This document shows positions 4,521 to 62,878 of a stretch of DNA of 64,000 nucleotides, piece by piece. This DNA is from Escherichia phage phT4A. Below the pieces are notes generated by a model. The model saw only the letters and a list, made by a program, of their open reading frames with translations, was not told the DNA's origin and made no database searches. The translations under genes were made by a program, and so were the position numbers. How positions within the stretch are numbered: position 1 is the first letter of the stretch; each line of letters begins with the position of its first letter. The stretch lies in the sequence record NC_055712.1. One strand, 5' to 3'.

Positions 4521-4525
4521 AAAAT

Positions 4526-4545
4526 GGGGCTTCGGCCCCTTTCTT
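4526..4545 (+). terminator. hairpin terminator/attenuator between td and nrdA
   Basis: GGGGC-TTCG-GCCCC then TTTCTT. Confidence 0.55.
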
Positions 4546-4559
4546 AACAAGGTAAGAGA

Positions 4560-6054: not shown

Positions 6055-6154
6055 NNNNNNNNNNNNNNNNNNNNNNNNNNNNNNNNNNNNNNNNNNNNNN
6101 NNNNNNNNNNNNNNNNNNNNNNNNNNNNNNNNNNNNNNNNNNNNNNNNNNNNNN
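6055..6154. other. assembly gap (100 N)
   Basis: Run of exactly 100 n; flanking sequence is not collinear (nrdA interior on left, non-nrdA sequence on right), so true length is unknown. Confidence 0.99.
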
Positions 6155-9038: not shown

Positions 9039-9421
9039 ATCTGTTTATGACTATTGGCGTTCCGGGTAGTGGAAAAACTACCTGGGCGCATGAGAAAGCC
9101 CGTGAATTGGGTAATACTGTTACGATCTCTCGCGATGATCTGCGTAGCTCTTTGTATAATGCNNNNNNNNNNNNNNNNNNNNNNNNNNNNNNNNNNNNNN
9201 NNNNNNNNNNNNNNNNNNNNNNNNNNNNNNNNNNNNNNNNNNNNNNNNNNNNNNNNNNNNNNGATACCAGGACAGATTTTGAAGTAAAAGAAGAAATTTT
9301 GTTTGACAAGATTTTAGATAAGTATTATCCTGTTATTGCAGTGGACGATAGAGACACTCCGGTCGGGATGTGGCGAGCAAACGGGATTCCGTGCTTACAA
9401 GTCGATTATGGTGATTTCTGA
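9035..9421 (+). CDS. pseT: polynucleotide 5'-kinase/3'-phosphatase, interior lost in gap
   Basis: N-term kinase P-loop MTIGVPGSGKTTWA; C-term phosphatase VIAVDDRDTPVGMWRANGIPCLQVDYGDF matches T4 Pnk C-terminus as recalled; about 200 aa missing. Confidence 0.85.
   Translation: MNLFMTIGVPGSGKTTWAHEKARELGNTVTISRDDLRSSLYNXXXXXXXXXXXXXXXXXXXXXXXXXXXXXXXXXXDTRTDFEVKEEILFDKILDKYYPVIAVDDRDTPVGMWRANGIPCLQVDYGDF
9163..9262. other. assembly gap (100 N)
   Basis: Run of 100 n inside pseT. Confidence 0.99.
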
Positions 9422-9449
9422 TTGACATCTAATGTGGGTATGTTAAAGT
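9422..9449 (+). promoter_or_regulatory. sigma70-type early promoter with embedded hairpin
   Basis: TTGACA-16 nt-TAAAGT; GTGGGTA..TACCCAC inverted repeat spans spacer and -10. Confidence 0.45.
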
Positions 9450-9473
9450 ACCCACACAAAAGAGGATTACATT

Positions 9474-9761
9474 ATGAACGTTATTCGTGAAGATAAAGGC
9501 ATCATGGTTGAACTTGGCGATCGCATTCGCGTAGAAAATTTGGGCGATTTTAATCAAAAAGTTCGTTTGTTGTGCCAAAAAATTGCTAACAAAATCCAGG
9601 AACAGAGAAAAGCACCAGGCGGGTTTGAAGTTAGCGCCACTCCGGTTTCTCAGTACTCGTACATTGTGTATATTCATGACGTGGATACTAACAGCACCCA
9701 ATCTTTCGGGCTGGTGTTAAATCCTATTACTGGCTACGTTACATGGGCGGTTGTATTATGA
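9474..9761 (+). CDS. hypothetical protein (95 aa)
   Basis: ORF track; SD AGAGGA upstream. Confidence 0.6.
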   Translation: MNVIREDKGIMVELGDRIRVENLGDFNQKVRLLCQKIANKIQEQRKAPGGFEVSATPVSQYSYIVYIHDVDTNSTQSFGLVLNPITGYVTWAVVL

Positions 9762-11408: not shown

Positions 11409-11485
11409 GGCCCCTTAGCTCAATAGGTAGAGCTAATCACTCATAATGGTTAGGTTCCCGGTTCAAGTCACGGGAGGGGCCACCA
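11409..11485 (+). tRNA. tRNA-Met (or Ile2) anticodon CAU, CCA encoded
   Basis: Acceptor GGCCCCT/AGGGGCC, D arm GCTC/GAGC, anticodon loop CTCATAA; T arm CCCGG-TTCAAGT-C(A)CGGG has a 1-nt bulge. Confidence 0.7.
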
Positions 11486-14737: not shown

Positions 14738-15178
14738 ATGGACATCGGATCAGGTAGTCAGTATCCCTCATGCGCTTTAAGCAACTTTGCCCCGCATCCG
14801 TTTACGTTCGACGGGGTAGAATGCGCATCGATGGAGGGGCTTTTACAAAGCCTGAAATTCAGCAATCCAGACATGCAAGCGCATGTATGTACGCTGGTTG
14901 GTAAAGCCGCCAAGTTCAAAGGCAAGAAAAAGAAATGGTATCGCGATCAGACCTTGTACTGGAAAGGTACACCGATCCATCGCGAATCCGAAGCGTACCA
15001 GATTCTTATTGAAAATGCGTACAATGCTCTTTTCCTGAATGACGGGTTCCGCCGTGCGCTGGCAGCAACCGGAAAAAGTACCTTGACACATTCAATGGGG
15101 AAATCTCGTATGAACGAAACTATTCTGACAGAACGAGAATTTATTAGAAATTTGAACAGGTTGAGAAATTTGTTATGA
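14738..15178 (+). CDS. NADAR (YbiA/DUF1768) domain protein
   Basis: CALSNFAPHPFTFDGVECASMEGLLQSLKF matches the NADAR signature (SNF.P.PF..DG....S.E...Q..KF). Confidence 0.75.
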   Translation: MDIGSGSQYPSCALSNFAPHPFTFDGVECASMEGLLQSLKFSNPDMQAHVCTLVGKAAKFKGKKKKWYRDQTLYWKGTPIHRESEAYQILIENAYNALFLNDGFRRALAATGKSTLTHSMGKSRMNETILTEREFIRNLNRLRNLL

Positions 15179-15693
15179 AAAGCGCTGATAACCTAAAAAA
15201 AGAAATTGAAGGAATCAAGAAATTATTGCATTATATCGATGTTGATATAGAGACTGGAATATGTACTTGGAAAAGACCCAGAAAATCTATAAATGTTGGT
15301 GATGTTGCTGGATGTAAGAAAGAAAAATATCATGTTATTTGTTTCGATTATAGGTTGTATAGACGACACAGGATTGTGTTCTATTTTGCTAAAGGTTACT
15401 TACCTCAAGTAGTAGACCACATTCATGGTGTTGAACATGGCGACGGTATTGATAATTTACAAGAGGCATCGCAAAGACAAAACGTTATTAAAAAGAAAGG
15501 ACAGAAAAACAACAAAAGTGGTTATCGAGGGGTGTGTTGGTCGTCTCGTGCTGAAAAGTATCGAGCAACTATAGGTATTGATGGAAAACAAATACATTTA
15601 GGATATTTCGATACTCCAGAAGAAGCAAGTAAAGCATATCATCAAAAAGCGAAAGAAACTTTTGGTGATTTTTATAATCCATTGGTTAAATGA
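15175..15693 (+). CDS. free-standing HNH-AP2 homing endonuclease (paralog 2; mobile)
   Basis: RHRIVFYFAKGYLPQVVDHIHG..GIDNLQ plus YRGVCWSSRAEKYRATIGIDGKQIHLGYFDTPEEA; ATGA overlap with NADAR stop. Confidence 0.85.
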   Translation: MKSADNLKKEIEGIKKLLHYIDVDIETGICTWKRPRKSINVGDVAGCKKEKYHVICFDYRLYRRHRIVFYFAKGYLPQVVDHIHGVEHGDGIDNLQEASQRQNVIKKKGQKNNKSGYRGVCWSSRAEKYRATIGIDGKQIHLGYFDTPEEASKAYHQKAKETFGDFYNPLVK

Positions 15694-16799: not shown

Positions 16800-18309
16800 T
16801 GAACTTGCGTCTACTCTGAAAACCAAAGAGAAAGAAGCAATTTTAAAACGTAATGCCGATAATGAATTATTGAAAGAAGTTTTCCGCATTACGTATACAA
16901 AACAGATTATGTTTTATGTGCGTCAATTTCCTCTGGTAGAAGGGAAACCAGGCACAACACCGCTTTCCGATGCAATCAAAGCATTGCTGGAAGATTTAGC
17001 AAGCCGGAAATATACAGGCAATGCAGCGCGTGATCGTTTACTGGATATTGTATCATCAGTGAACATTAACGATCGTGAAGTGCTACGCCGTATCATTAAC
17101 CGCGATCTGGAATGTGGTGCTGGCACAACCTTACCAAACAGGGTATGGAAGAAACTCATTCCTGAACAGCCTCAATGCCTCGCTACGCCGTTTAGTGAAA
17201 AGGCTTTACGTCGCATCATTTTCCCTGCTTACTCGCAGCTTAAAGCCGATGGTGCGCGTTGTATGGCTGATTTGTTGGAAGCATTAAACCGTAAAGTATC
17301 GAGGGCGGGTAACGAGTACGAAGGGTTAACCCAACTTGATATCGATCTGAAAAAGATTCGCGATTATCTGGGATATGATGTAGTTCTGGATGGAGAATTG
17401 ATTTATGTTCCTTCCGGAACCGTACCAACATTACCTGAACCTGAAACAGACATGCCTTTTTCTTTATCTGCTTTCATGGACGATGATGATAACGACATTG
17501 CGTTATTTGCGGAAGAAGTTCGCAAAGTATCGACCCCAGAAGAAGAACAGGCCGAAGCAAAACGCGAAGAAGGGAACGGGATCGTAAACAAATCTCTGAA
17601 AGGGACGATCACCGAAGAAGAACAGCGAAACATTGTTTATGTTGTTTGGGATATTATTCCATATGAGGTGTATTACGGCGAAGCTGAAAGTGTTCAGACT
17701 TATGATGAACGGTTTAGCCTGTTGCGTGATATCCTCCTGGATCTTTCTCTGCCTTCTGTTCGTTTGATTCAGTCTAAGCTGGTTAATAACATTGCAGAAG
17801 CGAAACAGGACTATAACAATTACCGCAATGACGGTAAAGAAGGTTCTATTCTCAAAAACAGAAACTTCAAATGGAAAGATTCGCGAGTAGCCGATCAGGT
17901 TAAGCTGAAAAACAAAACCCCGATTGAACTACGGATCATTGATATCTACGCGCACACTAAAGAAGACCATAAGGTCGGCGGGTTTGTGGTGGAAGATTTA
18001 TCCGGAATGGCTCGAACGAATACCGGATCTGGGTTAACTGATACCGATTATCGTTACGATGATGATGGTATTACCCGTGTATACATTCCATTAGATGAAC
18101 GTGGTGAACTGGATCGCGAATACATCATGGCGCATAAAGATGAATACATTGGGGCCATTGTAGAAATGGAAGTTGACGGCCTCCAGAAGTCGAAAACGCG
18201 TAAGAAAGGGGAACCGGAATACAGTTTCTTCCTTCCTATTATCAAGAAGATAAGACGCGATAAGACCGAACCCGACGATATTCATGTTGTCTTTGCAGAT
18301 CTATTTTGA
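16780..18309 (+). CDS. 30: ATP-dependent DNA ligase
   Basis: Collinear with T4 gp30 as recalled (MILSILNELAS..AILKRNADNELLKEVF..AQLKADGARC..NGIVNKSLKGTI). Confidence 0.9.
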   Translation: MILSILNELASTLKTKEKEAILKRNADNELLKEVFRITYTKQIMFYVRQFPLVEGKPGTTPLSDAIKALLEDLASRKYTGNAARDRLLDIVSSVNINDREVLRRIINRDLECGAGTTLPNRVWKKLIPEQPQCLATPFSEKALRRIIFPAYSQLKADGARCMADLLEALNRKVSRAGNEYEGLTQLDIDLKKIRDYLGYDVVLDGELIYVPSGTVPTLPEPETDMPFSLSAFMDDDDNDIALFAEEVRKVSTPEEEQAEAKREEGNGIVNKSLKGTITEEEQRNIVYVVWDIIPYEVYYGEAESVQTYDERFSLLRDILLDLSLPSVRLIQSKLVNNIAEAKQDYNNYRNDGKEGSILKNRNFKWKDSRVADQVKLKNKTPIELRIIDIYAHTKEDHKVGGFVVEDLSGMARTNTGSGLTDTDYRYDDDGITRVYIPLDERGELDREYIMAHKDEYIGAIVEMEVDGLQKSKTRKKGEPEYSFFLPIIKKIRRDKTEPDDIHVVFADLF

Positions 18310-18310
18310 T

Positions 18311-18348
18311 AAAAAGCCCTTGACTCCGGTCGGGGGCTTTGTTATATT
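18311..18348 (+). promoter_or_regulatory. hairpin-embedded early promoter cassette (PeSL-like)
   Basis: AAAAAGCCC-TTGACT-CCGGTCGGGGGCTTTGT-TATATT: -35 in hairpin loop, 17-nt spacer. Confidence 0.65.
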
Positions 18349-18385
18349 GGGCCTATCGAAACGTAAATCACTAAGAGAATATATT

Positions 18386-18955
18386 ATGACTAGTAGTTAT
18401 CAGAAACACAAAACCCTTATGGCAAACCTGTCCGGTAAACATATCGACGAAGTAAAATCTCTGCTGACAGTAACCGAAGGTTCCCGTTTTGACACAAATC
18501 ACATTATCAAACCTTCTGTGAAGAAAGTACTGAAAGTGATTTACCGACATCCGGTGTATCAGTGCGTTCATATCATGAACAGCAACGCATTTATTTTCGT
18601 ATATAACGAATCCGATGATAAGTGTGTTGGTATTTTCCGAAAACCTAACTTTGAATGCATGAGCGAAGCGGCTGTTGCAACCCCGATCGTTGAAGAATAT
18701 CCGGATTATGTTCAACGCAACATGCGTTATGTGCAATCCCGACTTGATTATGCATACGATTTCAATTCTGACGCGGTAGAAGCGCTGGCGGATATCCTTT
18801 GCAAAAACCAGAAAGATCGTCAAATGACAAAATATCTGACTGACCCAACACCGTCAACAATCCGAATTTCTGTCGAAGTTCCGTTTGAAAATCATTTCAT
18901 GGCGGTTGAAGCACTTGCTAAACTTGGTTTAGAAGTGAAAACAGAAGCCGTTTAA
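18386..18955 (+). CDS. hypothetical protein (189 aa)
   Basis: Start moved to ATG 18386, downstream of the promoter cassette. Confidence 0.65.
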   Translation: MTSSYQKHKTLMANLSGKHIDEVKSLLTVTEGSRFDTNHIIKPSVKKVLKVIYRHPVYQCVHIMNSNAFIFVYNESDDKCVGIFRKPNFECMSEAAVATPIVEEYPDYVQRNMRYVQSRLDYAYDFNSDAVEALADILCKNQKDRQMTKYLTDPTPSTIRISVEVPFENHFMAVEALAKLGLEVKTEAV

Positions 18956-18970
18956 TAGCACTTTTTGTTA

Positions 18971-19009
18971 AAGAAGCCTCTTGCAATGCAGGGGGCTTTT
19001 TTGTATAGT
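18971..19009 (+). promoter_or_regulatory. hairpin-embedded early promoter cassette (PeSL-like)
   Basis: AAGAAGCCTC-TTGCAA-17 nt-TATAGT, followed by leader CATCGAAACGAAACAGACAAAAGGAA. Confidence 0.65.
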
Positions 19010-19046
19010 GTGTTCATCGAAACGAAACAGACAAAAGGAACATCAC

Positions 19047-19337
19047 ATGAACTTCATCGATATCAACAAAGATTTGGAAGGTAAAAACATCAAACTCGTT
19101 AACCGTGAAATGTTAGAGAGTCTTGGTAACGGTGGCGAAAAATTCAGTGAAGAATTCTATAACAATTTATCGTTGATGACGGTCAAGCGCGTTGATGTTC
19201 AGGGTGGTTCTGGTTGGGTTTCTGCAATTCCGGTTTCCCTTGTAGATCAAGCAACATATGACCCAGTTGCGGATTCATGGGATCTGGAAATGCCGTTGGT
19301 ATTCGAAGAAGTCATGAAGTGTTACGAAATCGCATAA
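19047..19337 (+). CDS. hypothetical protein (96 aa)
   Basis: Start moved to ATG 19047 after promoter and leader. Confidence 0.65.
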   Translation: MNFIDINKDLEGKNIKLVNREMLESLGNGGEKFSEEFYNNLSLMTVKRVDVQGGSGWVSAIPVSLVDQATYDPVADSWDLEMPLVFEEVMKCYEIA

Positions 19338-19347
19338 GGGTATTATT

Positions 19348-19659
19348 ATGAATAGCGGAAAATTACAAATGAAAGTTAGCGAAGAAGAAGTTAAAGAGCG
19401 GTTATCGGTAGCAAGAAGATTCCTTGAATCTATCGACCCTGATAAACTTGGAAAATGCCCTGATACGATTTGCCTTAATTGTGGGCGTTCTGTTCTTGTT
19501 GGTAAGTGTTGCGATAATCCAAATATAGTTGTGATGGAAAAGGAACAAGTATCCCCCGAAACATGGGATCAGATCCAGGAAATCATTAAAAACCCTCCAG
19601 CGCCAACTAAGAAATTACGTGAATTGATGACAAGGAAAATGAAATATGAGCAAATTTAA
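19348..19659 (+). CDS. hypothetical Cys-rich protein (103 aa)
   Basis: ORF track; CPDTICLNCG..GKCCDNP possible zinc site. Confidence 0.6.
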   Translation: MNSGKLQMKVSEEEVKERLSVARRFLESIDPDKLGKCPDTICLNCGRSVLVGKCCDNPNIVVMEKEQVSPETWDQIQEIIKNPPAPTKKLRELMTRKMKYEQI

Positions 19660-20023
19660 ATTGAGTGCAACCGTTCGCCTTATTCGTTGGAATGGTGAAG
19701 AGATCCGTTATGATGACCCCGAATTCGCCCATGAAATTCTTTCGCATCGTTTGGGATTGAAAAACGCGTCATTGGTTCAAACTGTTAAAACATCAGCAGA
19801 GCCGGAAATTTGGCGTTGTGTTATTCTGGATCTCGATAACAACATTGATTATGATGATCCTAAGAACTATCCTCTTCTGGAAGCACAAGTTGAGAATGCT
19901 CCAGAAGACAGACAGTGTTTTTTGGTTGAGTTACCACGCGAACATTACGAAAACATCATAAAGGCCCGTAAAAAGGTCAATAACAATGTTTTCGATCTCC
20001 ACCTCGGATTGTTTGAGGATTAA
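19646..20023 (+). CDS. hypothetical protein (125 aa)
   Basis: ORF track; stop overlaps stop of convergent gene (TTAA). Confidence 0.6.
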   Translation: MSKFKLSATVRLIRWNGEEIRYDDPEFAHEILSHRLGLKNASLVQTVKTSAEPEIWRCVILDLDNNIDYDDPKNYPLLEAQVENAPEDRQCFLVELPREHYENIIKARKKVNNNVFDLHLGLFED

Positions 20024-21129
20024 GTACTGCTAGTTGTGTTCGTAGTAGCGGCGCTGGTAGGTTCCCCCACCTGTATACATTCAAGTGTTTGCAGGTGGAA
20101 ATCTTTTGATACGTCTCGAACACATTCAACGATCAGATATTTTCCTGCATACTCTTCCCCAAATACCTCAATGATTGCCCCTACCTTAACATCTAAACGA
20201 CCCTGCTTTATATCGAATCGGATCCGGCGTTCATAGCTGGATAACAATTGCATTTTAGACGCCTGGAAAGGTTTACCTTCTGAATCTGGGTTCTGAAAGT
20301 TGGTATCATAGATTGCATTACGGTTTGTGAAGATCCATGTATTTTCTGTGTCTGTATCAGCCAGTATGTCACCGTACATCTTTTTATCAGTCAATGACAG
20401 ACTAAAGAAACTGGCATCTTTAAACAGCGTTGTGTTATCCTTATGGGTAATATACTGGGCTTCTGTGAATATGACAGTATCACCAACAAACACGTTATCA
20501 ACGTTAAATTTGTATGCTGGGATCGGTGTCTGGGCCAGAATGTCAGTTGAACTTTTAAGGAAAATACCGGAACCATCTTCCCACAGATAACAGAAGTCAG
20601 AAGAAACTACACTTTGCCCGTTGTCCCTGATATAATCAAATATATCCTGATATGTACCATTTAGACATCCAGGAGGGATACGTATGTTACCGCCGTCAAC
20701 TTCGGGGGTAAGTAGTTTCATTTTGCTATACAGTGCCGTCATACACTCTGTAATCGTCTGTACGGCGTTGTTACTAAATGAACGGGCAAACTTACGTCTG
20801 AACGTTTTATGCAGCGGAGAGAGGTTCATACGCAGCACAGAACGGTTCTTATCGTCAGTATCTACGTTAGAGTAAAGCAATCCGTAATAATGTTGTTCCT
20901 GTGTACCGTTATACTGGAAAGATACCTGTATGATCGGCTGGATAAGTTGCTGATAGATTAACTGTGCGTCGTATATCTGCATCAGCGTTTCCGATGAGCC
21001 GTTAATCATCGTCTTTTCACTAAACGAGACAAGAGCGGGTAGCAATTCAGTATATGCGTTATCAATGTATTTTTCGTATGATGTATATAATTTAATCGAT
21101 GTGACTCGATTGACGATTTTTTCAGCCAT
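20020..21129 (-). CDS. 27: baseplate hub subunit, gp27-like (tentative)
   Basis: 369 aa, divergent from the 28-29-48-54 block; C-terminal S/T-rich tail and overall layout resemble T4 gp27 as recalled; strong SD AGGAGGG. Confidence 0.6.
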   Translation of the reverse strand: MAEKIVNRVTSIKLYTSYEKYIDNAYTELLPALVSFSEKTMINGSSETLMQIYDAQLIYQQLIQPIIQVSFQYNGTQEQHYYGLLYSNVDTDDKNRSVLRMNLSPLHKTFRRKFARSFSNNAVQTITECMTALYSKMKLLTPEVDGGNIRIPPGCLNGTYQDIFDYIRDNGQSVVSSDFCYLWEDGSGIFLKSSTDILAQTPIPAYKFNVDNVFVGDTVIFTEAQYITHKDNTTLFKDASFFSLSLTDKKMYGDILADTDTENTWIFTNRNAIYDTNFQNPDSEGKPFQASKMQLLSSYERRIRFDIKQGRLDVKVGAIIEVFGEEYAGKYLIVECVRDVSKDFHLQTLECIQVGEPTSAATTNTTSST

Positions 21130-25508: not shown

Positions 25509-25509
25509 A

Positions 25510-25527
25510 GGGGCTACGGCCCCTTTT
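25510..25527 (+). terminator. hairpin GGGGC-TACG-GCCCC plus TTTT (weak terminator/attenuator)
   Basis: Immediately after the gp54-like stop. Confidence 0.4.
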
Positions 25528-25536
25528 GAGGATCTT

Positions 25537-27224: not shown

Positions 27225-27226
27225 CA

Positions 27227-27258
27227 AAAAGCCCCTTCCTTTCGGTTGGGGCTTTCTT
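27227..27258. terminator. bidirectional terminator between convergent arms
   Basis: AAAAGCCCC-N12-GGGGCTTT with U-tracts on both strands; marks the + to - strand switch. Confidence 0.7.
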
Positions 27259-27947: not shown

Positions 27948-28232
27948 CTATTGCCCTCTTTCCATTTTTTCAAGTTTCAGTGTATCCACTTGTAGTTGAA
28001 GTTTAAGAATACAACCTTTCGATATGTTATACAAGTAGTCACTAACGATTTTTGACTTTACCTGATCGTAATCAGAAGATAACGTAATCCAATCATACAT
28101 CGTTTGGTATGATGGAAGATACGTACATTGTTCTTCTTTTGATAACGCTTTAAATGATTGGTAATCGGTTGGAGGTTCCGAAGCAATTGCGGTTGTGGTC
28201 ATAAGACTAAGTGCAAGTAGTAGATATTTCAT
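27948..28232 (-). CDS. exported small protein (94 aa)
   Basis: Start moved to ATG 28232, giving signal peptide MKYLLLALSLMTTTAIA; promoter cassette just upstream. Confidence 0.6.
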   Translation of the reverse strand: MKYLLLALSLMTTTAIASEPPTDYQSFKALSKEEQCTYLPSYQTMYDWITLSSDYDQVKSKIVSDYLYNISKGCILKLQLQVDTLKLEKMERGQ

Positions 28233-28262
28233 AATGTATTCCTCATTGTTTTCGATAGAACC

Positions 28263-28300
28263 AATATAGCAAAAAGCCCCGACCGAAGTCAAGGGCTTTT
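28263..28300 (-). promoter_or_regulatory. hairpin-embedded early promoter cassette (PeSL-like)
   Basis: Minus strand: AAAAAGCCC-TTGACT-18 nt-TATATT. Confidence 0.6.
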
Positions 28301-28303
28301 TCA

Positions 28304-29229: not shown

Positions 29230-29876
29230 TTGCAGGTATCCATTCTCATAGAAACTTCTTTCAGGATCTTATTCAGATCGTGAAGCGCATCTTTTACGTT
29301 ACCTTCGTTATAGGTAAGCATATCCTGGTACAGCCCTTTCAAGCAACGATTGATTACATATGCTTTTTCAGAAGGTAACATTGTACCAGAGCGATTATAA
29401 TCTCTGAAAATGTCCATCATCGTGCCGTTGTTACCAGGTAATGACGGGTTGAAGTTAACCATACCGGACATCAAACTATCAACATACACAACTGTTGTGT
29501 TATCAGAACGATACGCGCCACCAACTTTAAACCAGTTGCTGAACACATACGGAGATTCCCGCACTTCGCTCAAATCGGTTCCGATTTCATCGATGTTTAC
29601 ACGAATGTTGTTAAAATACACCGATTCATCAATAGAACCATGACGCCATAAGATAGCACCATTGTTATTTTTGAATCCGACTACATCAACCTGCCAGCCG
29701 TTATCTGTTAACCGGACATCATCAACGACAATGAAATCAGGTAGCTGTGAATGAAAGCCGATGTTTTCAGGACGGGAATTACGAAACCCATCACGATTGG
29801 AGAAATAAAGGATGTCGCCTTGATTCAGTTCGCATATATTCATAAGATTTTTAAAGTCCAATTCAAGTAATTCCAC
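29226..29876 (-). CDS. hypothetical protein (216 aa, GTG start)
   Basis: ORF track; SD GAGG after the hairpin. Confidence 0.6.
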   Translation of the reverse strand: MELLELDFKNLMNICELNQGDILYFSNRDGFRNSRPENIGFHSQLPDFIVVDDVRLTDNGWQVDVVGFKNNNGAILWRHGSIDESVYFNNIRVNIDEIGTDLSEVRESPYVFSNWFKVGGAYRSDNTTVVYVDSLMSGMVNFNPSLPGNNGTMMDIFRDYNRSGTMLPSEKAYVINRCLKGLYQDMLTYNEGNVKDALHDLNKILKEVSMRMDTCK

Positions 29877-29886
29877 AAGTCACCTC

Positions 29887-29905
29887 AAAGCCCCCTTTCG
29901 GGGGC
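29887..29905 (-). terminator. intra-operon hairpin (attenuator) after the vWA gene
   Basis: Minus strand: GCCCCC-GAAA-GGGGGC then TTTGAGG (the U-tract merges into the next SD). Confidence 0.4.
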
Positions 29906-29912
29906 AAATTCA

Positions 29913-33661: not shown

Positions 33662-33673
33662 ATAAACCCCACG

Positions 33674-33694
33674 AAAAAGCCCCTTTCGGGGCTT
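33674..33694 (-). terminator. rho-independent terminator
   Basis: Minus strand: AAGCCCC-GAAA-GGGGCTTTTT. Confidence 0.7.
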
Positions 33695-33700
33695 GATTAA

Positions 33701-33979: not shown

Positions 33980-34037
33980 GGTATGTTCCTTTTGTCAGTT
34001 TCGTTTCAACAAGGTCACTATACTATTCTTCGTTAGC

Positions 34038-34571
34038 CTATGCAAGATTTAATTTAGCAAATTCTCCAAAATGTTTTATCGCTTCCTGGTCGTATGCTTT
34101 TGCAGCCTCTAACTCATCACTATAAGAACCGATATGCTTAACCTTACCATCAACCATTATCTGTGCAATGTAACGTATTCCGGTTGGTTGATTGCGTACA
34201 CATACACCCTTGAATATGCTGGTTCCTTCCTTTCGCCGTTTCCTGTTCTGAGAGTTGCGGGATTGGTTCGCTTCGCGCAAGTTATCAATCCCGTCACCAG
34301 CCTCAACACCATTTTTGTGATCAATCACATCAGGTAGTTTTCCGGTCGCAACGTAGTAGATGATTCGATGGCGTAGATACCCTTTGCTTTTGAAATAAAC
34401 GCGTGTATATCCTCCTTTGATCTTCGAACCAACTTCCTTTCCGATCAAGTCGGAACGTTTATGCGATGTTCGTATAATCTTTCCTGTGTGGACATCAACA
34501 GAAACAGTTTTGAGGAATTCATCAATTCCTCTCTGTTCTTCTTCAACTGTTCTTAATCCATTATGTGACAT
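34038..34571 (-). CDS. free-standing HNH-AP2 homing endonuclease (paralog 3; mobile)
   Basis: RHRIIYYVATGKLPDVIDHKNG..GIDNLR plus FKGVCVRNQPTGIRYIAQIMVDGKVKHIGSYSDELEA; 19-nt overlap with the dcm 3' end. Confidence 0.85.
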   Translation of the reverse strand: MSHNGLRTVEEEQRGIDEFLKTVSVDVHTGKIIRTSHKRSDLIGKEVGSKIKGGYTRVYFKSKGYLRHRIIYYVATGKLPDVIDHKNGVEAGDGIDNLREANQSRNSQNRKRRKEGTSIFKGVCVRNQPTGIRYIAQIMVDGKVKHIGSYSDELEAAKAYDQEAIKHFGEFAKLNLA

Positions 34572-36940: not shown

Positions 36941-37040
36941 NNNNNNNNNNNNNNNNNNNNNNNNNNNNNNNNNNNNNNNNNNNNNNNNNNNNNNNNNNNN
37001 NNNNNNNNNNNNNNNNNNNNNNNNNNNNNNNNNNNNNNNN
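36941..37040. other. assembly gap (100 N)
   Basis: Run of 100 n joining two unrelated coding frames. Confidence 0.99.
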
Positions 37041-37410: not shown

Positions 37411-37679
37411 TTCCTCACAGTTTCAAATTCTTCATCAGATTTCCAATATACGTTAAAATTACGACAATCGTGTTCGGATGTCAACGTGTATTTTTCATTT
37501 GTTTTTTCGTCAGTGATAACCATAGTTTCATTCTCGATCGAGTTAACACCGTAAACGAAAACATTCTCACCACGTTTGTTTAAAAACGCATCACCCTTTT
37601 CAATCAACTGCCAACAGGTAACAGGCAAACCACCCGGACTAACCGGGCGGGTAACAAGACAATAGGGATGTTTAATCAT
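37407..37679 (-). CDS. hypothetical protein (90 aa)
   Basis: ORF track; ATGA coupling both sides. Confidence 0.6.
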   Translation of the reverse strand: MIKHPYCLVTRPVSPGGLPVTCWQLIEKGDAFLNKRGENVFVYGVNSIENETMVITDEKTNEKYTLTSEHDCRNFNVYWKSDEEFETVRK

Positions 37680-37870
37680 TTAAATTCTTCCATTGCATAG
37701 GAAGTAAGATCTTTGAAATACCTTGCGGTGTTGCCTTCTGGGTTGTTTGTAATCTCCATCAGGATAACAGCACTATCAACTCCTGCTTTCTTAGCCATGA
37801 ATGAAAGGGCTTCGGTAGCAATAATCGTTGCTTTCATAACATCAGCTTTAGAAACGTTGATTGTATTCAT
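37676..37870 (-). CDS. hypothetical protein (64 aa)
   Basis: ORF track; first gene after promoter cassette. Confidence 0.6.
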   Translation of the reverse strand: MNTINVSKADVMKATIIATEALSFMAKKAGVDSAVILMEITNNPEGNTARYFKDLTSYAMEEFK

Positions 37871-37906
37871 TTTTCTTCCTTTTCATTAATCACTTGGTAT
37901 GTGTGT

Positions 37907-37945
37907 ATAATACAAAAGCCCTCACGAGAACGCAAGGGCTTTTTA
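37907..37945 (-). promoter_or_regulatory. hairpin-embedded early promoter cassette (PeSL-like)
   Basis: Minus strand: AAAAAGCCC-TTGCGT-17 nt-TATTAT-ACACACAT. Confidence 0.6.
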
Positions 37946-37977
37946 TTAAATTTCGTATAAATCTGGATTCACAATAA

Positions 37978-38007
37978 CCGCACATAAAAGATCATCTATA
38001 TGTGCGG
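37978..38007 (-). terminator. hairpin terminator after the Nudix gene
   Basis: CCGCACATA-N12-TATGTGCGG, weak U-tract. Confidence 0.45.
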
Positions 38008-38043
38008 CTTCTTGTTCTAAGGTTTGCTTAGATGAATGTGCTT

Positions 38044-38622
38044 TCAAGCAACCCCCGTAAAGGCGTTTACTATCTGGAAATGATCATCGAAGAATTCCCC
38101 TTGTCGTTGCACGACCTCATGCATAGGTAGCCAGAACGCGTCTGCTGCATCATCAGCACCGCCCATGATACGAGGCAATGAACCATCGTTATTAGGTTCG
38201 AGCTTGATATACTGTGCTACAGTCGGTTTTGAGAAGTACACCGAACGTTTCGGATGATCGAACAGCATCGAATTACGGATAGAACCACGAATAACCTTTT
38301 CAGGTACTTTAATTCGTACTTCTTCCAGTAATTCACGGATCGCACAATCAAGGAACGTTTCGTTACCGTTTTTGTGTCCACCCGGAAGCGCTAACGCATC
38401 TTTACCAGGCGCAAACTTACGACGGATTACTAACACGTGGTTATTACATACGACCACTGAATCAGCCGTGCAACAGTTCAGAGAATCCGGATACGGATAT
38501 TTTTTGAACTTGTCAATCTCTCGTTGCCAGTGCGCATCTTCATGGGACAAACGCTGGAATTCTTTTGTTTGTGTCCATTCATCGATAAAGGAAACCGTAG
38601 TGCTAGGCGCATATTTTAACAA
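38044..38622 (-). CDS. Nudix hydrolase (ADP-ribose pyrophosphatase-like), TTG start or C-terminal half of a NadM-Nudix fusion
   Basis: Nudix box GGHKNGNETFLDCAIRELLEEVRI; no ATG start; frame is -1 relative to the NMNAT gene and overlaps its stop. Confidence 0.8.
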   Translation of the reverse strand: MLKYAPSTTVSFIDEWTQTKEFQRLSHEDAHWQREIDKFKKYPYPDSLNCCTADSVVVCNNHVLVIRRKFAPGKDALALPGGHKNGNETFLDCAIRELLEEVRIKVPEKVIRGSIRNSMLFDHPKRSVYFSKPTVAQYIKLEPNNDGSLPRIMGGADDAADAFWLPMHEVVQRQGEFFDDHFQIVNAFTGVA

Positions 38623-39129: not shown

Positions 39130-39228
39130 TCATAAAACAGACGCAATTATTAAAACACCAAACAATCCACCAATGAAACCAAAGAATAGTGAAATGAGTA
39201 TTGTCAATACGATCTGTTTTATGTTCAT
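39130..39228 (-). CDS. single-TM micro-protein (32 aa)
   Basis: Manual: MNIKQIVLTILISLFFGFIGGLFGVLIIASVL; weak SD. Confidence 0.35.
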   Translation of the reverse strand: MNIKQIVLTILISLFFGFIGGLFGVLIIASVL

Positions 39229-39280
39229 TATAGTATTCTCGTTTTAGATGTCAAGCCCCCAAAGAGGGGGCTTTAAAACA

Positions 39281-42065: not shown

Positions 42066-42288
42066 TTATCCTCTCAACAAAATCTGGGGTATTTTGGAAT
42101 TTCCCTTCCCCTTCATGGTTTTTGCATGTTTTATTTGAACAGTAGATCCACCAATCCCACTCATCATAAGGGGGTTTGGTAATGTTCATTACGCAAATTA
42201 AAGGGAAATGACAATCCCGACAACGAACTTTTTCTATAATGTGTGCGTTAGCCAATTGAAAACCATCCTTTACCCATGAGTTTTTCAT
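42058..42288 (-). CDS. hypothetical Cys-rich protein (76 aa from ATG 42288)
   Basis: CRDCHFPLIC..YCSNKTCKNH; track start 42339 overlaps the upstream ORF by 92 nt. Confidence 0.5.
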   Translation of the reverse strand: MKNSWVKDGFQLANAHIIEKVRCRDCHFPLICVMNITKPPYDEWDWWIYCSNKTCKNHEGEGKFQNTPDFVERING

Positions 42289-42463
42289 TATGTCGCGCAA
42301 GATACTCTTTGATTTCTGGCATCCGGATCGCAGTGTCATACTCTTCTTTCGTCATGGTATGATTTGCGCAACCCATACACCCGCACACCTGCGCGTTACA
42401 CCAACGGAGTGTTCCATATGTCGCAATCACCTTCATTGCTTTAGCTTTGATTTTGTCAGTCAT
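42248..42463 (-). CDS. hypothetical Cys-rich protein (71 aa)
   Basis: WCNAQVCGCMGCANH; start moved to ATG 42463. Confidence 0.5.
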   Translation of the reverse strand: MTDKIKAKAMKVIATYGTLRWCNAQVCGCMGCANHTMTKEEYDTAIRMPEIKEYLARHNEKLMGKGWFSIG

Positions 42464-44458: not shown

Positions 44459-44592
44459 TCCCCGTTTTTGTCAATATACATGATCCAATCAGCAACCGAC
44501 CAATGGGAAGTATTGCCTTTCGGAGTCGCTACGATGTAGGAACCAGCTTTAAACAGTACGCGTTTAGTTTCGTTCAGGATCAGGTCGCTCAT
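44446..44592 (-). CDS. hypothetical small protein (48 aa)
   Basis: Manual: MSDLILNETKRVLFKAGSYIVATPKGNTSHWSVADWIMYIDKNGEWVQ; SD GAGAGGAA; first ORF after promoter cassette. Confidence 0.4.
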   Translation of the reverse strand: MSDLILNETKRVLFKAGSYIVATPKGNTSHWSVADWIMYIDKNGEWVQ

Positions 44593-44620
44593 AATGTATT
44601 CCTCTCAATTAGATGCATCC

Positions 44621-44658
44621 ATAATAAAAAAGCCCCCGACCGAAGTCAAGGGCTTTTT
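44621..44658 (-). promoter_or_regulatory. hairpin-embedded early promoter cassette (PeSL-like)
   Basis: Minus strand: AAAAAGCCC-TTGACT-17 nt-TATTAT; near-duplicate of the 28263 cassette. Confidence 0.6.
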
Positions 44659-45921: not shown

Positions 45922-46104
45922 TTACAATTCAACCTCGTTTTTACAGTATATACATTCAATAAAATCAACTTTTCGCATGTTGAAGAAATATGAACCCTCA
46001 GAAGATTTTTCCTTGTGTTTTACATCTTCCGCGTCATATTTCATAGTAGTATCACAACAATTGCACGTAACAATACGAGATTTTGCATTTATGATCTCAA
46101 TCAT
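45922..46104 (-). CDS. zinc-ribbon micro-protein (60 aa), tandem paralog 2
   Basis: CNCC..CIYC; SD TGAGGTG identical to its neighbour. Confidence 0.55.
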   Translation of the reverse strand: MIEIINAKSRIVTCNCCDTTMKYDAEDVKHKEKSSEGSYFFNMRKVDFIECIYCKNEVEL

Positions 46105-46112
46105 GATACACC

Positions 46113-46310: not shown

Positions 46311-46321
46311 ATACACCTCAC

Positions 46322-46342
46322 AAAAAGGGGGCTTTCGCCCCC
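46322..46342 (-). terminator. rho-independent terminator after phoH
   Basis: Minus strand: GGGGGC-GAAA-GCCCCC then TTTTT. Confidence 0.65.
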
Positions 46343-46346
46343 ATCA

Positions 46347-47702: not shown

Positions 47703-48227
47703 TTATGTGGTTTCGTTAAAAAATGCACCGAAAACCTCTTTTGCTTTCCGGTTATAAACGGATTTTGCTTCTTCTGGAGTGTTATAGTACCCCAAAAATT
47801 TTCTTTTTCCATCTATGTTTATCTGCGCTTTGTACTTCCCATTGGCTTTATGATAAGAAACACCTTTCAACCCTGTACTACTGTTTGAGTTACATTTCTT
47901 TTTCATCGCATTTTGCTGGTTCGTCGCTTTCTGTAAATTTCTTGCTGTATCTCCATTCTCAACACCATATACATGATCTACGATAGGAGGAAGATAACCA
48001 TTCTCAACGTAAAACACTATTCGGTGTCGCAAATACATAGAACCTTTAAAATGAATTTGGGAATACTCGTTTTTGCTTCCGGCTTCACTTCCAGGAAACA
48101 TAGGGCCGCGCTGAACTTTCCAATACACTTTACCTGTAGATGTATCAACATCTACAAAATTCAGAAGAGATTCGATCCCTTGAATCTCTTCATGTATGGT
48201 TCTTGATGAATAGCCATGACTTTTCAT
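47703..48227 (-). CDS. free-standing HNH-AP2 homing endonuclease (paralog 4; mobile)
   Basis: RHRIVFYVENGYLPPIVDHVYG plus LKGVSYHKANGKYKAQINIDGKRKFLGYYNTPEEA; ATG 48227 overlaps upstream stop. Confidence 0.85.
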   Translation of the reverse strand: MKSHGYSSRTIHEEIQGIESLLNFVDVDTSTGKVYWKVQRGPMFPGSEAGSKNEYSQIHFKGSMYLRHRIVFYVENGYLPPIVDHVYGVENGDTARNLQKATNQQNAMKKKCNSNSSTGLKGVSYHKANGKYKAQINIDGKRKFLGYYNTPEEAKSVYNRKAKEVFGAFFNETT

Positions 48228-48685
48228 TACATACCCAGCGAAATTACGTGAATATATGCTAATGGATGTTTCTTTTGTACACAATGCATGAGTGTATTAT
48301 ACACAATGTCCATGCGTTCATTGCGCGTAAGATCACACTCATCAAAAATAAGGTTTATTGCCTGGTGCTCTATTCGACGTCCACGGAAATGATTAAGAAT
48401 TGCCCCTTTACTGGTCAATACATCACATCCGGTAGCACCATTTAGCTGTTTGGCGTCTTGTGCTGCATTTAACGTATGCGCTACGTAAATGTTAAGGGAA
48501 CTATGGGAACGTTTCATAAAATCAAACGCGCCTTTAGTCTTTTGCGTTTCTCTGCCCAGATCCAGCCTGGTTTCGAATACCATAAAATCGTTAGGGCCGT
48601 AATTATGCGTTGGTTCTTCCAACTCTCGCATAAGATGCATCTTACGACATTCTTCAATTGTCTTTACATAAAATTCACTATTCAT
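48227..48685 (-). CDS. hypothetical protein (152 aa)
   Basis: ORF track. Confidence 0.6.
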   Translation of the reverse strand: MNSEFYVKTIEECRKMHLMRELEEPTHNYGPNDFMVFETRLDLGRETQKTKGAFDFMKRSHSSLNIYVAHTLNAAQDAKQLNGATGCDVLTSKGAILNHFRGRRIEHQAINLIFDECDLTRNERMDIVYNTLMHCVQKKHPLAYIHVISLGM

Positions 48686-48716
48686 GTTTTACCTTTAAGG
48701 GGCCAAAGCCCCTTTG

Positions 48717-49590: not shown

Positions 49591-49644
49591 AATATATTCC
49601 TCTCAATTGGTGTAACTACAGATTACTAGTTTAGTTTCTGAATG

Positions 49645-49968: not shown

Positions 49969-49980
49969 AATTTTACCTAC

Positions 49981-50000
49981 AAAAAAGCCCCTTTCGGGGC
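49981..50000 (-). terminator. rho-independent terminator
   Basis: Minus strand: GCCCC-GAAA-GGGGC then TTTTTT. Confidence 0.7.
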
Positions 50001-50007
50001 TAGTTAA

Positions 50008-50271: not shown

Positions 50272-50340
50272 TTTTCTCTCCTAAAGTGTGTTTCGTTTCT
50301 ACAGGGCTATAGTCTCATAACCCCGTATCTACGTCAACAC

Positions 50341-51562: not shown

Positions 51563-51884
51563 ACATTCTTTCCTTCTGTTCTGTGCTCATGCCATACAAC
51601 TGAGAGCGTATACGGTCTTGTATACGACGCGTTTCGTTTTGCATCAGTTGGTTTGAAAGAATCAAATCGACCACCGCGCCGCGAACTTTCCATAGATAAT
51701 CAATCATCGCCATATCTTCATCAGTATGGAAACCCTTCGCATCACATTCATAGATAATGCTTTGCCTTTCCGCCATTGCCATTTCTGCTGTCGCCGGAGT
51801 AGCCAGAGAATATTCATACTTCTCGATCAATGATTCCAGTGTACGTGGTTTTACGGGAATGTCAACAGTTATTGGACGAATCAT
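51543..51884 (-). CDS. hypothetical protein (113 aa)
   Basis: Start moved to ATG 51884 (ATGA overlap). Confidence 0.55.
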   Translation of the reverse strand: MIRPITVDIPVKPRTLESLIEKYEYSLATPATAEMAMAERQSIIYECDAKGFHTDEDMAMIDYLWKVRGAVVDLILSNQLMQNETRRIQDRIRSQLYGMSTEQKERMYARNNR

Positions 51885-61450: not shown

Positions 61451-61591
61451 TTAGTAATCCCCTACAGGTTGAGACGCCGCAACACTCAGGATCTTGAAAG
61501 TGCAATTGTTCCATTCACAATAAGTTTTTGCGCAATGAACACTTCCTTTCATAACAAACCCGTTTGAGAAAATTAACCAGTAAAGTTTCAT
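61451..61591 (-). CDS. hypothetical small protein (46 aa)
   Basis: Start moved to ATG 61591 (SD AAGGAGG) after the promoter cassette. Confidence 0.4.
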   Translation of the reverse strand: MKLYWLIFSNGFVMKGSVHCAKTYCEWNNCTFKILSVAASQPVGDY

Positions 61592-61618
61592 GATAGCCTC
61601 CTTTGTTTCGACAAGGCC

Positions 61619-61657
61619 AATATAACAAAGCCCCTGCACGAATGCAAGGGCTTTTTT
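61619..61657 (-). promoter_or_regulatory. hairpin-embedded early promoter cassette (PeSL-like)
   Basis: Minus strand: AAAAAAGCCC-TTGCAT-17 nt-TATATT; near-duplicate of the 57208 cassette. Confidence 0.6.
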
Positions 61658-62827: not shown

Positions 62828-62840
62828 AAAACACCCCAAT

Positions 62841-62860
62841 AAAAAAGGGGCCGAAGCCCC
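62841..62860 (-). terminator. rho-independent terminator
   Basis: Minus strand: GGGGC-TTCG-GCCCC then TTTTTT. Confidence 0.7.
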
Positions 62861-62878
62861 TTTGTAATAAATTTGTTT

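Follow-up and report, generated by a model that had tools for sequence, protein, structure and literature searches.

Probable terminator–promoter cassettes of the PeSL type in the early regions of a Slopekvirus

In a 64,000-nt stretch of Escherichia phage phT4A (NC_055712.1), referred to hereafter as the window and numbered from its first letter, we find eight canonical copies of a compact unit in which a hairpin with a T-run and a sigma-70-like promoter occupy the same bases. It is very likely that these units are composite cassettes of an intrinsic terminator and an early promoter, of the promoter-early-stem-loop (PeSL) type, in a Slopekvirus. By megablast, the window is 98-99% identical to Slopekvirus genomes, the T4-like Klebsiella phages of the Miro/Matisse/KP15 group, and it is colinear with its ~99% identical relative VAC66 over ~113 kb to 178.5 kb of the latter. 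Positions 1-27,250 carry, on the plus strand, genes of nucleotide metabolism, DNA ligase and, after these, genes of the baseplate hub, and positions 27,259-64,000 hold a hyperplastic early region of small genes on the minus strand. Two of the cassettes lie on the plus strand and six on the minus strand, and all are intergenic and co-oriented with the flanking genes.

Anatomy and recurrence of the cassettes

From its A-run to the start codon the unit measures ~70-80 nt, or ~85 nt with the upstream stop codon, which falls 0-10 nt before the A-run or within it in seven of the eight cassettes; no clear upstream open reading frame (ORF) end could be assigned to the remaining one, at 37944. At least five A's stand directly before GCCC, the -10 hexamer is TATATT, TATTAT or TATAGT in every copy, the spacer is 17 bp long in seven copies and 18 bp in the one at 28301, and an extended -10 TG is present in five of the eight. 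The leader (A/G)T(C/A)GAAAC(G)AAAC begins precisely at the predicted start site, six bases past the -10, and follows eight promoters in the window, some of them hairpin-less. The ATG comes 21-32 nt after the predicted +1, preceded by a GGAG/AGGA-type ribosome-binding site. A sequence-only reading of the window had already located all eight copies where we find them, with the same -10 hexamers and a 17-18-nt spacer, but it had placed the -35 hexamer in the hairpin loop; RNA folding puts TTG and the next two bases into the upper stem instead and leaves a loop of 3-4 nt.

On the plus strand, cassette 1 (18311..18388, core 18311-18348) begins directly after the DNA ligase stop codon (18307-18309). 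Its hairpin (18313-18340, loop UCCG; -20.4 kcal/mol, z -5.9) takes in the -35 TTGACT (18320-18325), from which a 17-bp spacer with TG leads to the -10 TATATT (18343-18348); the predicted +1 falls at ~18355 (ATCGAAACG), and the ATG at 18386 opens a 189-aa ORF. This copy is the top terminator-like site in our scan (12 pairs) and a 10/12 promoter-like match. Cassette 2 (18969..19049, core 18971-19009) has its hairpin at 18969-19003, with the triloop AAU (-20.9 kcal/mol), the -35 TTGCAA at 18981-18986 and, 17 bp further on, the -10 TATAGT at 19004-19009; a predicted +1 at ~19016 (ATCGAAACGAAAC) precedes the ATG at 19047 of a 96-aa ORF.

On the minus strand, cassette 3 (28230..28301, core 28263-28301) folds over 28301-28271 around a UUCG loop, with one bulged U (-17.0 kcal/mol), and joins TTGACT (28292-28287) across 18 bp and a TG to TATATT (28268-28263); its ATG (28232) begins a 94-aa ORF whose start resembles a signal peptide. 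In cassette 4 (37868..37944, core 37907-37944; hairpin 37943-37914, loop UUCU, -19.4 kcal/mol), TTGCGT (37935-37930) and TATTAT (37912-37907) lie 17 bp apart upstream of the ATG (37870) of a 64-aa ORF, and the KP15 record annotates a promoter and a terminator here. Cassette 5 (44590..44658, core 44621-44658), which comes after the Vs.1/SLT-domain gene, combines a hairpin at 44658-44627 (loop UUCG, -20.7 kcal/mol) with TTGACT (44649-44644), a 17-bp spacer, TATTAT (44626-44621) and an ATG at 44592. Cassette 6 (55322..55402, core 55363-55400) has a CCCC/GGGG stem closed by the triloop AAU (55402-55369, -18.9 kcal/mol, 13 pairs in the terminator scan), TTGCCA (55391-55386), 17 bp with TG before TATATT (55368-55363), the leader ATAGAAACGAAAC and the ATG (55324) of a 92-aa ORF. 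Cassettes 7 (57169..57245, core 57208-57245) and 8 (61589..61657, core 61619-61657) share TTGCAT (57236-57231 and 61647-61642), a 17-bp spacer with TG, TATATT (57213-57208 and 61624-61619) and a hairpin energy of -19.3 kcal/mol, with the loop UUAG in the former (57243-57216) and UUCG in the latter (61654-61627); cassette 7 continues from ~57201 into the leader ATCGAAACGAAAC and the ATG (57171) of a 67-aa ORF, and cassette 8 leads to the ATG (61591) of a 46-aa ORF.

The profile search that the sequence-only reading had proposed sets these eight copies far above anything else: with a profile derived from the eight, they obtain E values of 1e-15 to 1e-21, and the next-best match has 1e-4. A strict regular expression matches exactly the eight sites, and the pattern AAASCCCTTG-N11-GGGYTTT, with up to two mismatches, picks out seven cassettes and a plain bidirectional terminator, where shuffled sequence yields 0.03 matches on average. 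An intrinsic-terminator consensus scan flags six of the eight, and the cassettes are its longest-stemmed terminator-like sites. Cassettes 3 and 5, and likewise 7 and 8, had been described as near-identical, which holds over the ~38-nt core, where each pair differs by one base (one G in one pair, one loop base in the other), but not downstream, where the sequences diverge. Similarly, the description of each cassette as preceding one to a few small genes fits cassettes 1, 2, 3 and 6, but cassettes 4 and 5 head runs of ~10 genes each. The complete genome of VAC66 holds 14 strong cassettes, all co-oriented, all in early regions and none in structural blocks, and a 91-nt query of cassette and leader matches 1,395 places in 185 phage records (mean 7.5 per record) that span Slopekvirus and the RB43/RB16 group (Pseudotevenvirus).

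The RNA hairpin and its proposed role

As sense RNA, the cassettes fold into an uninterrupted stem of 12-16 bp, closed by a UUCG, UCCG, UUAG, UUCU or AAU loop, with energies of -17 to -21 kcal/mol and z-scores of -3.9 to -6.6. Both T's of the TTG pair with G or A and its G with C or U, and -35 positions 4 and 5 pair with the bases directly past the loop. The antisense strand folds at -8.5 to -15 kcal/mol, 3.5-12 kcal/mol worse than the sense strand and with internal loops, because the G·U pairs turn into A·C mismatches. This strand-specific fold argues that the structure is selected in RNA made in the gene direction, and not as a DNA cruciform. An Rfam search of the whole window found no RNA family at the cassettes; its sole match is a single tRNA-Met (CAT) gene at 11409-11485.

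A MAFFT alignment of all 19 hairpin variants placed the triloop and tetraloop classes out of register, and pairs were counted on the tetraloop class only. In the nine distinct hairpins of this class that occur in the window and four relatives, pairing reaches 99.1%, compared with 22-66% in slid-partner controls. In public viral contigs (IMG/VR), scanned with a pattern that fixes the lower stem and the -10 and leaves the 11 central bases free, 14 distinct hairpin variants are 100% paired across the five free pairs. The upper stems found are GAC/GUC, GCA/UGC, GCG/CGU, GCC/GGU, GUA/UGU and GGA/UCC, and -35 positions 4 and 5 vary on both sides of the stem. TTG is constant in both variant sets, and its partners vary only among pairing bases (UG or UA; GC or GU); the 19 distinct copies show no variation in the TTG of the -35 or in the T, A, T and final T of the -10. 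Such a fixed TTG with drifting partners is, to judge from the variants compared, the signature of a promoter constraint on the 5' arm combined with a structure constraint on both arms. Orthologous loci carry different upper stems, and the sites orthologous to cassette 7 in other phages have GUAA, UUCG and UUAC loops on compensated stems.

We propose that a transcript arriving from the upstream gene would fold at the unit into the 12-16 bp hairpin, with the A-run, GCCC and UUGNN as its 5' arm and NN(G/A)(G/A), GGGC and the U-run as its 3' arm, followed by a U-rich tail. Hairpin and tail would end or attenuate this transcript, whose 3' end they would also cap. In the DNA duplex, these bases would make a host sigma-70 promoter, in which the A-tract resembles an UP element, the ascending arm contains the TTGNNN -35, and the 17-bp spacer is made up of the G-rich descending arm and the T-run, often with an extended -10 TG before TATATT. 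Transcription would restart ~7 nt past the -10, at the conserved AUCGAAAC leader, and proceed through the ribosome-binding site to the ATG. With terminator and restart in one unit, each cassette would thus insulate the downstream gene block and give it its own early transcription; and since the ~85-nt unit is repeated in direct orientation, it would offer a substrate for homologous recombination by which small gene modules are gained or lost, one such substrate among others and not the sole one.

Related sites and indel junctions

The sequence-only reading had counted at least ten copies, adding to the eight canonical ones a variant at 9422 and degenerate copies near 54345 and 50300, none of which we accept as canonical. 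The first (9422..9476, plus strand) is promoter-like, with TTGACA-16-TAAAGT and a TG, and does have a 7-bp hairpin (GTGGGTA/TACCCAC), but the hairpin lies over the -10, and without a U-tract the site is not a terminator-type cassette. The site near 54345 (54324..54386, minus strand) is a decayed remnant with TTGCGT-17-TACCTT, a poor -10 and no hairpin, which has kept the leader ATAGAAACGAAAC (profile E 1e-4) and sits within a 275-bp module that VAC66 lacks. The copy near 50300 (50279..50337, minus strand), doubtful or decayed, combines TTGACG with a TATAGC placed 20 bp downstream of it; its 6-bp hairpin is weak, and its leader is GTAGAAACGAAAC (profile E 0.18).

Other sites on the minus strand contain parts of the unit. 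A hairpin-less promoter at 33980..34023, TTGCAT-17-TATAGT followed by GTTGAAACGAAACTGACAAAAGGAA, shares the -10 and leader of the cassettes, and a hairpin-less partial copy at 54971..55045 has a -10-like TATTGT followed by the leader ACACACATCGAAACGAAGGAGG, at a place where phiEap-3 has an insertion or deletion (indel). At 39227..39280, in another composite arrangement, the hairpin AAAGCCCCC-TCTT-TGGGGGCTT abuts and overlaps TTGACA-16-TATAAT, a perfect (12/12) consensus. The window also contains several plain promoters without a hairpin and ~10 plain hairpins (4521-4559, 25509-25536, 29844-29912, 33662-33700, 46311-46346, 48686-48716, 49969-50007, 59010-59037 and 62828-62878), which have pure G/C stems, GAAA or UUCG-type loops and no promoter features, that is, neither TTG nor -10. 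Mostly followed by a T-run and located inside operons just before the next ribosome-binding site, these have the appearance of terminators, attenuators or elements that stabilise RNA. Where the baseplate-wedge gene converges on the minus-strand early region, the symmetric hairpin AAAAAGCCCCTTCCTTTCGGTTGGGGCTTTCTTTT (27225-27258) is likely a bidirectional terminator, and KP15 annotates terminators on both strands.

Indels were compared in a panel of VAC66, Matisse, KP15, phiEap-3 and KLB21, joined by RCIP0020 over window positions 17000-21000 only. A 621-bp module of three small ORFs is present at 18971 in most relatives, between a hairpin cassette and a second copy of its promoter and leader that lacks the hairpin, with an overlap of 31-34 nt; the window is the recombinant, its crossover falling inside GTATAGTGTGTTCATYGAAACGAAACA (18996-19029). 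At 55363, Matisse and phiEap-3 hold one extra ORF (~397 bp) between a hairpin cassette and a hairpin-less promoter, and cassette 6 of the window is a chimera of the two flanking cassettes, with 36- and 53-nt overlaps. With these two crossovers inside cassettes, the condition under which the sequence-only reading would have been refuted, cassettes that do not coincide with synteny breakpoints in relatives, does not hold. Just downstream of the cassette at 44621, relatives have a 406-bp insertion of one ORF, bounded by the 19-nt repeat GAGGAATACATTATGAGCG (44586-44604), which covers the ribosome-binding site and the start codon, and phiEap-3 replaces the region 37679-38079, including the cassette at 37907. 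In the cross-genus case of Lw1 (RB43 group), window 19383 onward (gene starting near 19348) follows immediately on the post-ligase cassette, and both cassette-headed ORFs are missing. No indel event in the panel involves the cassettes at 18311, 28263, 57208 and 61619.

Other indels of the panel are homing-endonuclease genes or use homologies of 12-16 nt at ribosome-binding sites; homologies at ribosome-binding sites and start codons range over 12-19 nt in all. The homing-endonuclease genes, at 15175-15693, 34038-34571, 47703-48284 and 53299-54069, are missing from some relatives and account for several of the largest indels; the last of them, a GIY-YIG gene on the plus strand, opposes the direction of its neighbours. 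Small modules at 42254-42455, 45922-46110, 51865-52170, 54316-54592 and 56827-56978 are each lacking in at least one of the five relatives, those at 45922-46110 and 56827-56978 in all five. They measure 150-300 bp, hold one ORF each (45-98 aa, two of them Cys-rich and zinc-ribbon-like) and have boundaries that coincide exactly with gene starts and stops; what had looked like suspicious window-specific extra segments of this size are ordinary small ORF modules. The context GAGGAATACATTATG, a ribosome-binding site with its start codon, precedes several unrelated genes (44586-44604, 28233-28246, 9460-9476 and 49591-49610), and since a repeat of this type bounds a one-gene indel, translation signals, and not only promoters, can serve as crossover homologies. 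The idea that the cassettes drive gene shuffling has only partial support: they are real crossover sites, though not demonstrably the dominant ones, other homologies are used too, and breakpoints are not significantly enriched at cassettes.

As for the contents of the modules, the second gene downstream of the cassette at 18971 (19348-19659) is annotated in VAC66 as DUF1778, which is ribbon-helix-helix antitoxin-like, and is possibly a counter-defence or toxin-antitoxin-related accessory gene under cassette control. In KLB21 (PP597383.1), a gene at 1309-1686 annotated as similar to the anti-CBASS protein Acb1 replaces part of window 62-63 kb, so that the variable modules of this region include counter-defence genes. 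Three runs of 100 N's in the window (6055-6154, 9163-9262 and 36941-37040) are assembly gaps or masked stretches and not real sequence, since relatives hold 2205, 598 and 878 bp there (nrdA, pseT and the region near 37 kb, respectively).

Relation to PeSLs and competing explanations

PeSLs were defined in RB49 and phi1 as early sigma-70 promoters joined with transcription-terminating stem-loops, in which the stem-loop takes one of five positions relative to the promoter, overlap with the -35 among them; their promoter and terminator activities were shown in reporter assays, and mini-circles arising by recombination between them were reported (Arbiol et al., 2010; PMC2839356). Later work added the PeSLs of PST/T4 and nt-1/KVP40, whose stems are specific to the lineage (Comeau et al., 2014; PMC4122927), and 'PeSL-like sequences' have been mentioned for RB43. 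At the level of sequence, the window cassettes have the defining features of this class, as the sequence-only reading had proposed. They share with the PeSLs of RB49/phi1 an upstream stop codon in an A/AT-rich tract, a sigma-70-like -35/N17/-10, a ribosome-binding site with ATG at the 3' end, occurrence in many co-oriented copies that neighbour small ORFs of unknown function in hyperplastic early regions, and, at some of the copies, proximity to indels between close relatives. The overlap of stem-loop and -35 corresponds to one of the five subclasses, G-T stem pairs have been noted in PeSLs too, and the length of the unit is close to the ~100-bp conservation of PeSLs (PMC2839356). The assignment to the RB49/phi1 type is correct as to the class but not as to the lineage, which is Slopekvirus/RB43 (Pseudotevenvirus) and not Krischvirus. 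In contrast to RB49, where the stem runs G then C, it runs C then G here (A-run/GCCC ... GGGC/T-run); one architecture dominates, with the -35 in the upper stem, whereas RB49/phi1 mix five subclasses; and the cassettes carry a conserved +1 leader, AUCGAAACGAAAC, which we count as a further difference. On these comparisons, it appears essentially right to regard the cassettes as a lineage-specific member of the known PeSL class, and not as a new kind of element.

The components of the unit had been predicted before. For RB43, early promoters and TransTerm terminators were listed (Nolan et al., 2006; PMC1524935, Additional files 3 and 6), and the RB43 intervals 95429-95338, 96885-96794, 100931-100841 and 85919-85827 are direct orthologues of window cassettes, listed there as Pe:95419, Pe:96875, Pe:100921 and Pe:85900; the first three correspond to cassettes 6, 7 and 8, respectively. 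The RB43 terminators 95389-95409 and 100890-100911 are nested in the Pe:95419 and Pe:100921 intervals, but the two sets were reported apart, and in the available part of the paper their fusion is not discussed and neither 'stem-loop' nor 'hairpin' occurs (PMC1524935). The KP15 record (NC_014036.1) has overlapping promoter (MEME) and terminator (ARNold) features at the cassette sites, and the KP15/KP27 paper, as far as available, counts promoters and terminators separately, does not contain the term 'stem-loop' and describes no composite unit (Maciejewska et al., 2016; PMC5219037). Literature searches combining PeSLs with Klebsiella, and Slopekvirus with promoter or terminator, returned unrelated papers only. 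T4 early promoters, as described in the accessible part of the RB43 study, resemble those of the window in their use of host sigma-70, an A-rich tract at ~-40 to -44 and a GT-rich stretch or TG before the -10 (PMC1524935). They differ in the -35, which is GTTTAC in T4 and has G at -33 (TTG...) in the lineage of the window, and, a PeSL-like subset aside, they are generally not embedded in a terminator hairpin.

Several observations weigh against the cassettes being terminator–promoter composites. Those at 37944 and 44658, in which the T-run is consumed by A-U pairing at the base of the stem, were for this reason not recognised as terminators by the generic scanner; their tails are UUUUUUAUUAU and UUUUGUAUUAU, and ARNold flags both in KP15. 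Four U-tracts are interrupted (UUUGUUAUAUU), and TTGCAT, TTGCGT and TTGCCA agree with no more than 4-5 of the 6 positions of the -35 consensus. In the window overall, generic sigma-70 matches show no enrichment over shuffled sequence (49 vs 54.7, 41 vs 42.6 and 56 vs 44.9), so that the promoter evidence comes from the fixed composite geometry and not from motif counts. The breakpoint comparison is not significant either, with breakpoints at 4 of the 9 cassette junctions and at 30 of the 95 others (p = 0.33; 0.12 was also obtained), in a rough test based on our own ORF calls and five relatives. Finally, a literature search, partly ill-aimed, turned up no usable mapping of Slopekvirus transcript 5' or 3' ends, and we therefore infer termination efficiency, promoter activity and timing.

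One could conclude from this absence of sigma-70 enrichment, from the rank of the cassettes as the best terminator-like sites in the window and from the Matisse record, which annotates terminators alone at these sites, that the units are only intrinsic terminators or 3'-end stabilising hairpins whose promoter likeness is incidental. We judge this very unlikely: the plain terminators of the window lack both promoter elements, TTG stays constant in the cassettes although structure alone would permit it to change and its partners do vary, TAnnnT always lies 17-18 bp away, with leader, ribosome-binding site and ATG at fixed distances, and the hairpin-less copies retain promoter and leader. A different kind of promoter is implied by the KP15 feature label 'putative middle promoter', that is, a T4-type middle promoter dependent on MotA and AsiA, and the TGCAT or TGCGT of several copies does loosely resemble the TGCTT of the Mot box. 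This box, (a/t)(a/t)(a/t)TGCTTtA, lies 11-13 bp upstream of the -10 and needs phage MotA and AsiA. In the cassettes, TGC sits 15 nt from the -10, outside that range, in a geometry that fits a -35 with a 17-bp spacer. A tblastn search of the whole VAC66 genome with T4 MotA and AsiA gave no homologue (best E = 1.5-2), and Pfam found no match in the VAC66 genes after the holin gene t, the position of asiA in T4. According to the available part of the RB43 study, that phage has neither MotA nor a middle-promoter consensus, and the orthologous sites were scored as early (PMC1524935); in the available part of the KP15 paper, the only basis for 'middle' is a MEME motif (PMC5219037). With neither Mot-box geometry nor a MotA/AsiA homologue, we reject this reading as highly improbable, and the KP15 label (e.g., 55838-55875 and 75862-75902 in NC_014036.1) looks wrong from the sequence.

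That the units act primarily as DNA, as cruciforms, recombination sites or miniature mobile elements with secondary transcription signals, has only a very slim chance of being correct. Speaking for it are the repetition and partial palindromy of the units, the finding of identical 36-nt cores at separate loci of a single genome, the two indels with a crossover inside a cassette, and the precedent of the PeSL mini-circles (PMC2839356). However, the stem needs G·U pairs, whose DNA counterparts are T·G and A·C mismatches, and its fold is strand-specific; the crossovers fall in the -10 and leader, not in the hairpin; other indels use translation-signal homologies or are homing-endonuclease genes; breakpoints are not enriched at cassettes; and neither target-site duplications nor terminal repeats were seen. 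Another possibility, which we consider rather unlikely, goes further than a composite cassette: the fusion would be a functional coupling, in which the incoming polymerase is released in the spacer and -10 of the next promoter and this promoter is shielded from read-through occlusion, or the polymerase is handed on for local re-initiation, and the self-contained ~85-nt unit might also be the very vehicle that carries small gene modules between loci and between Slopekvirus and Pseudotevenvirus. The latter idea draws on the identical cores at different loci and on the different upper stems of orthologous loci.

Understood as composite terminator–promoter cassettes, the units temper the idea of such elements as the main drivers of gene shuffling, since homologies at ribosome-binding sites and start codons and homing-endonuclease genes also act, and they would correct the 'middle promoter' label of the KP15 reference record. 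They provide a checkable annotation rule for putative early transcription units, which yields eight for the window and 14 per genome, and an example of one 38-nt stretch that appears to be under two constraints, in which TTG is fixed and its G·U or A-U partners drift. More broadly, the PeSL design would then also be represented in the Slopekvirus/RB43 lineage, to which many Klebsiella phages studied for therapy belong.

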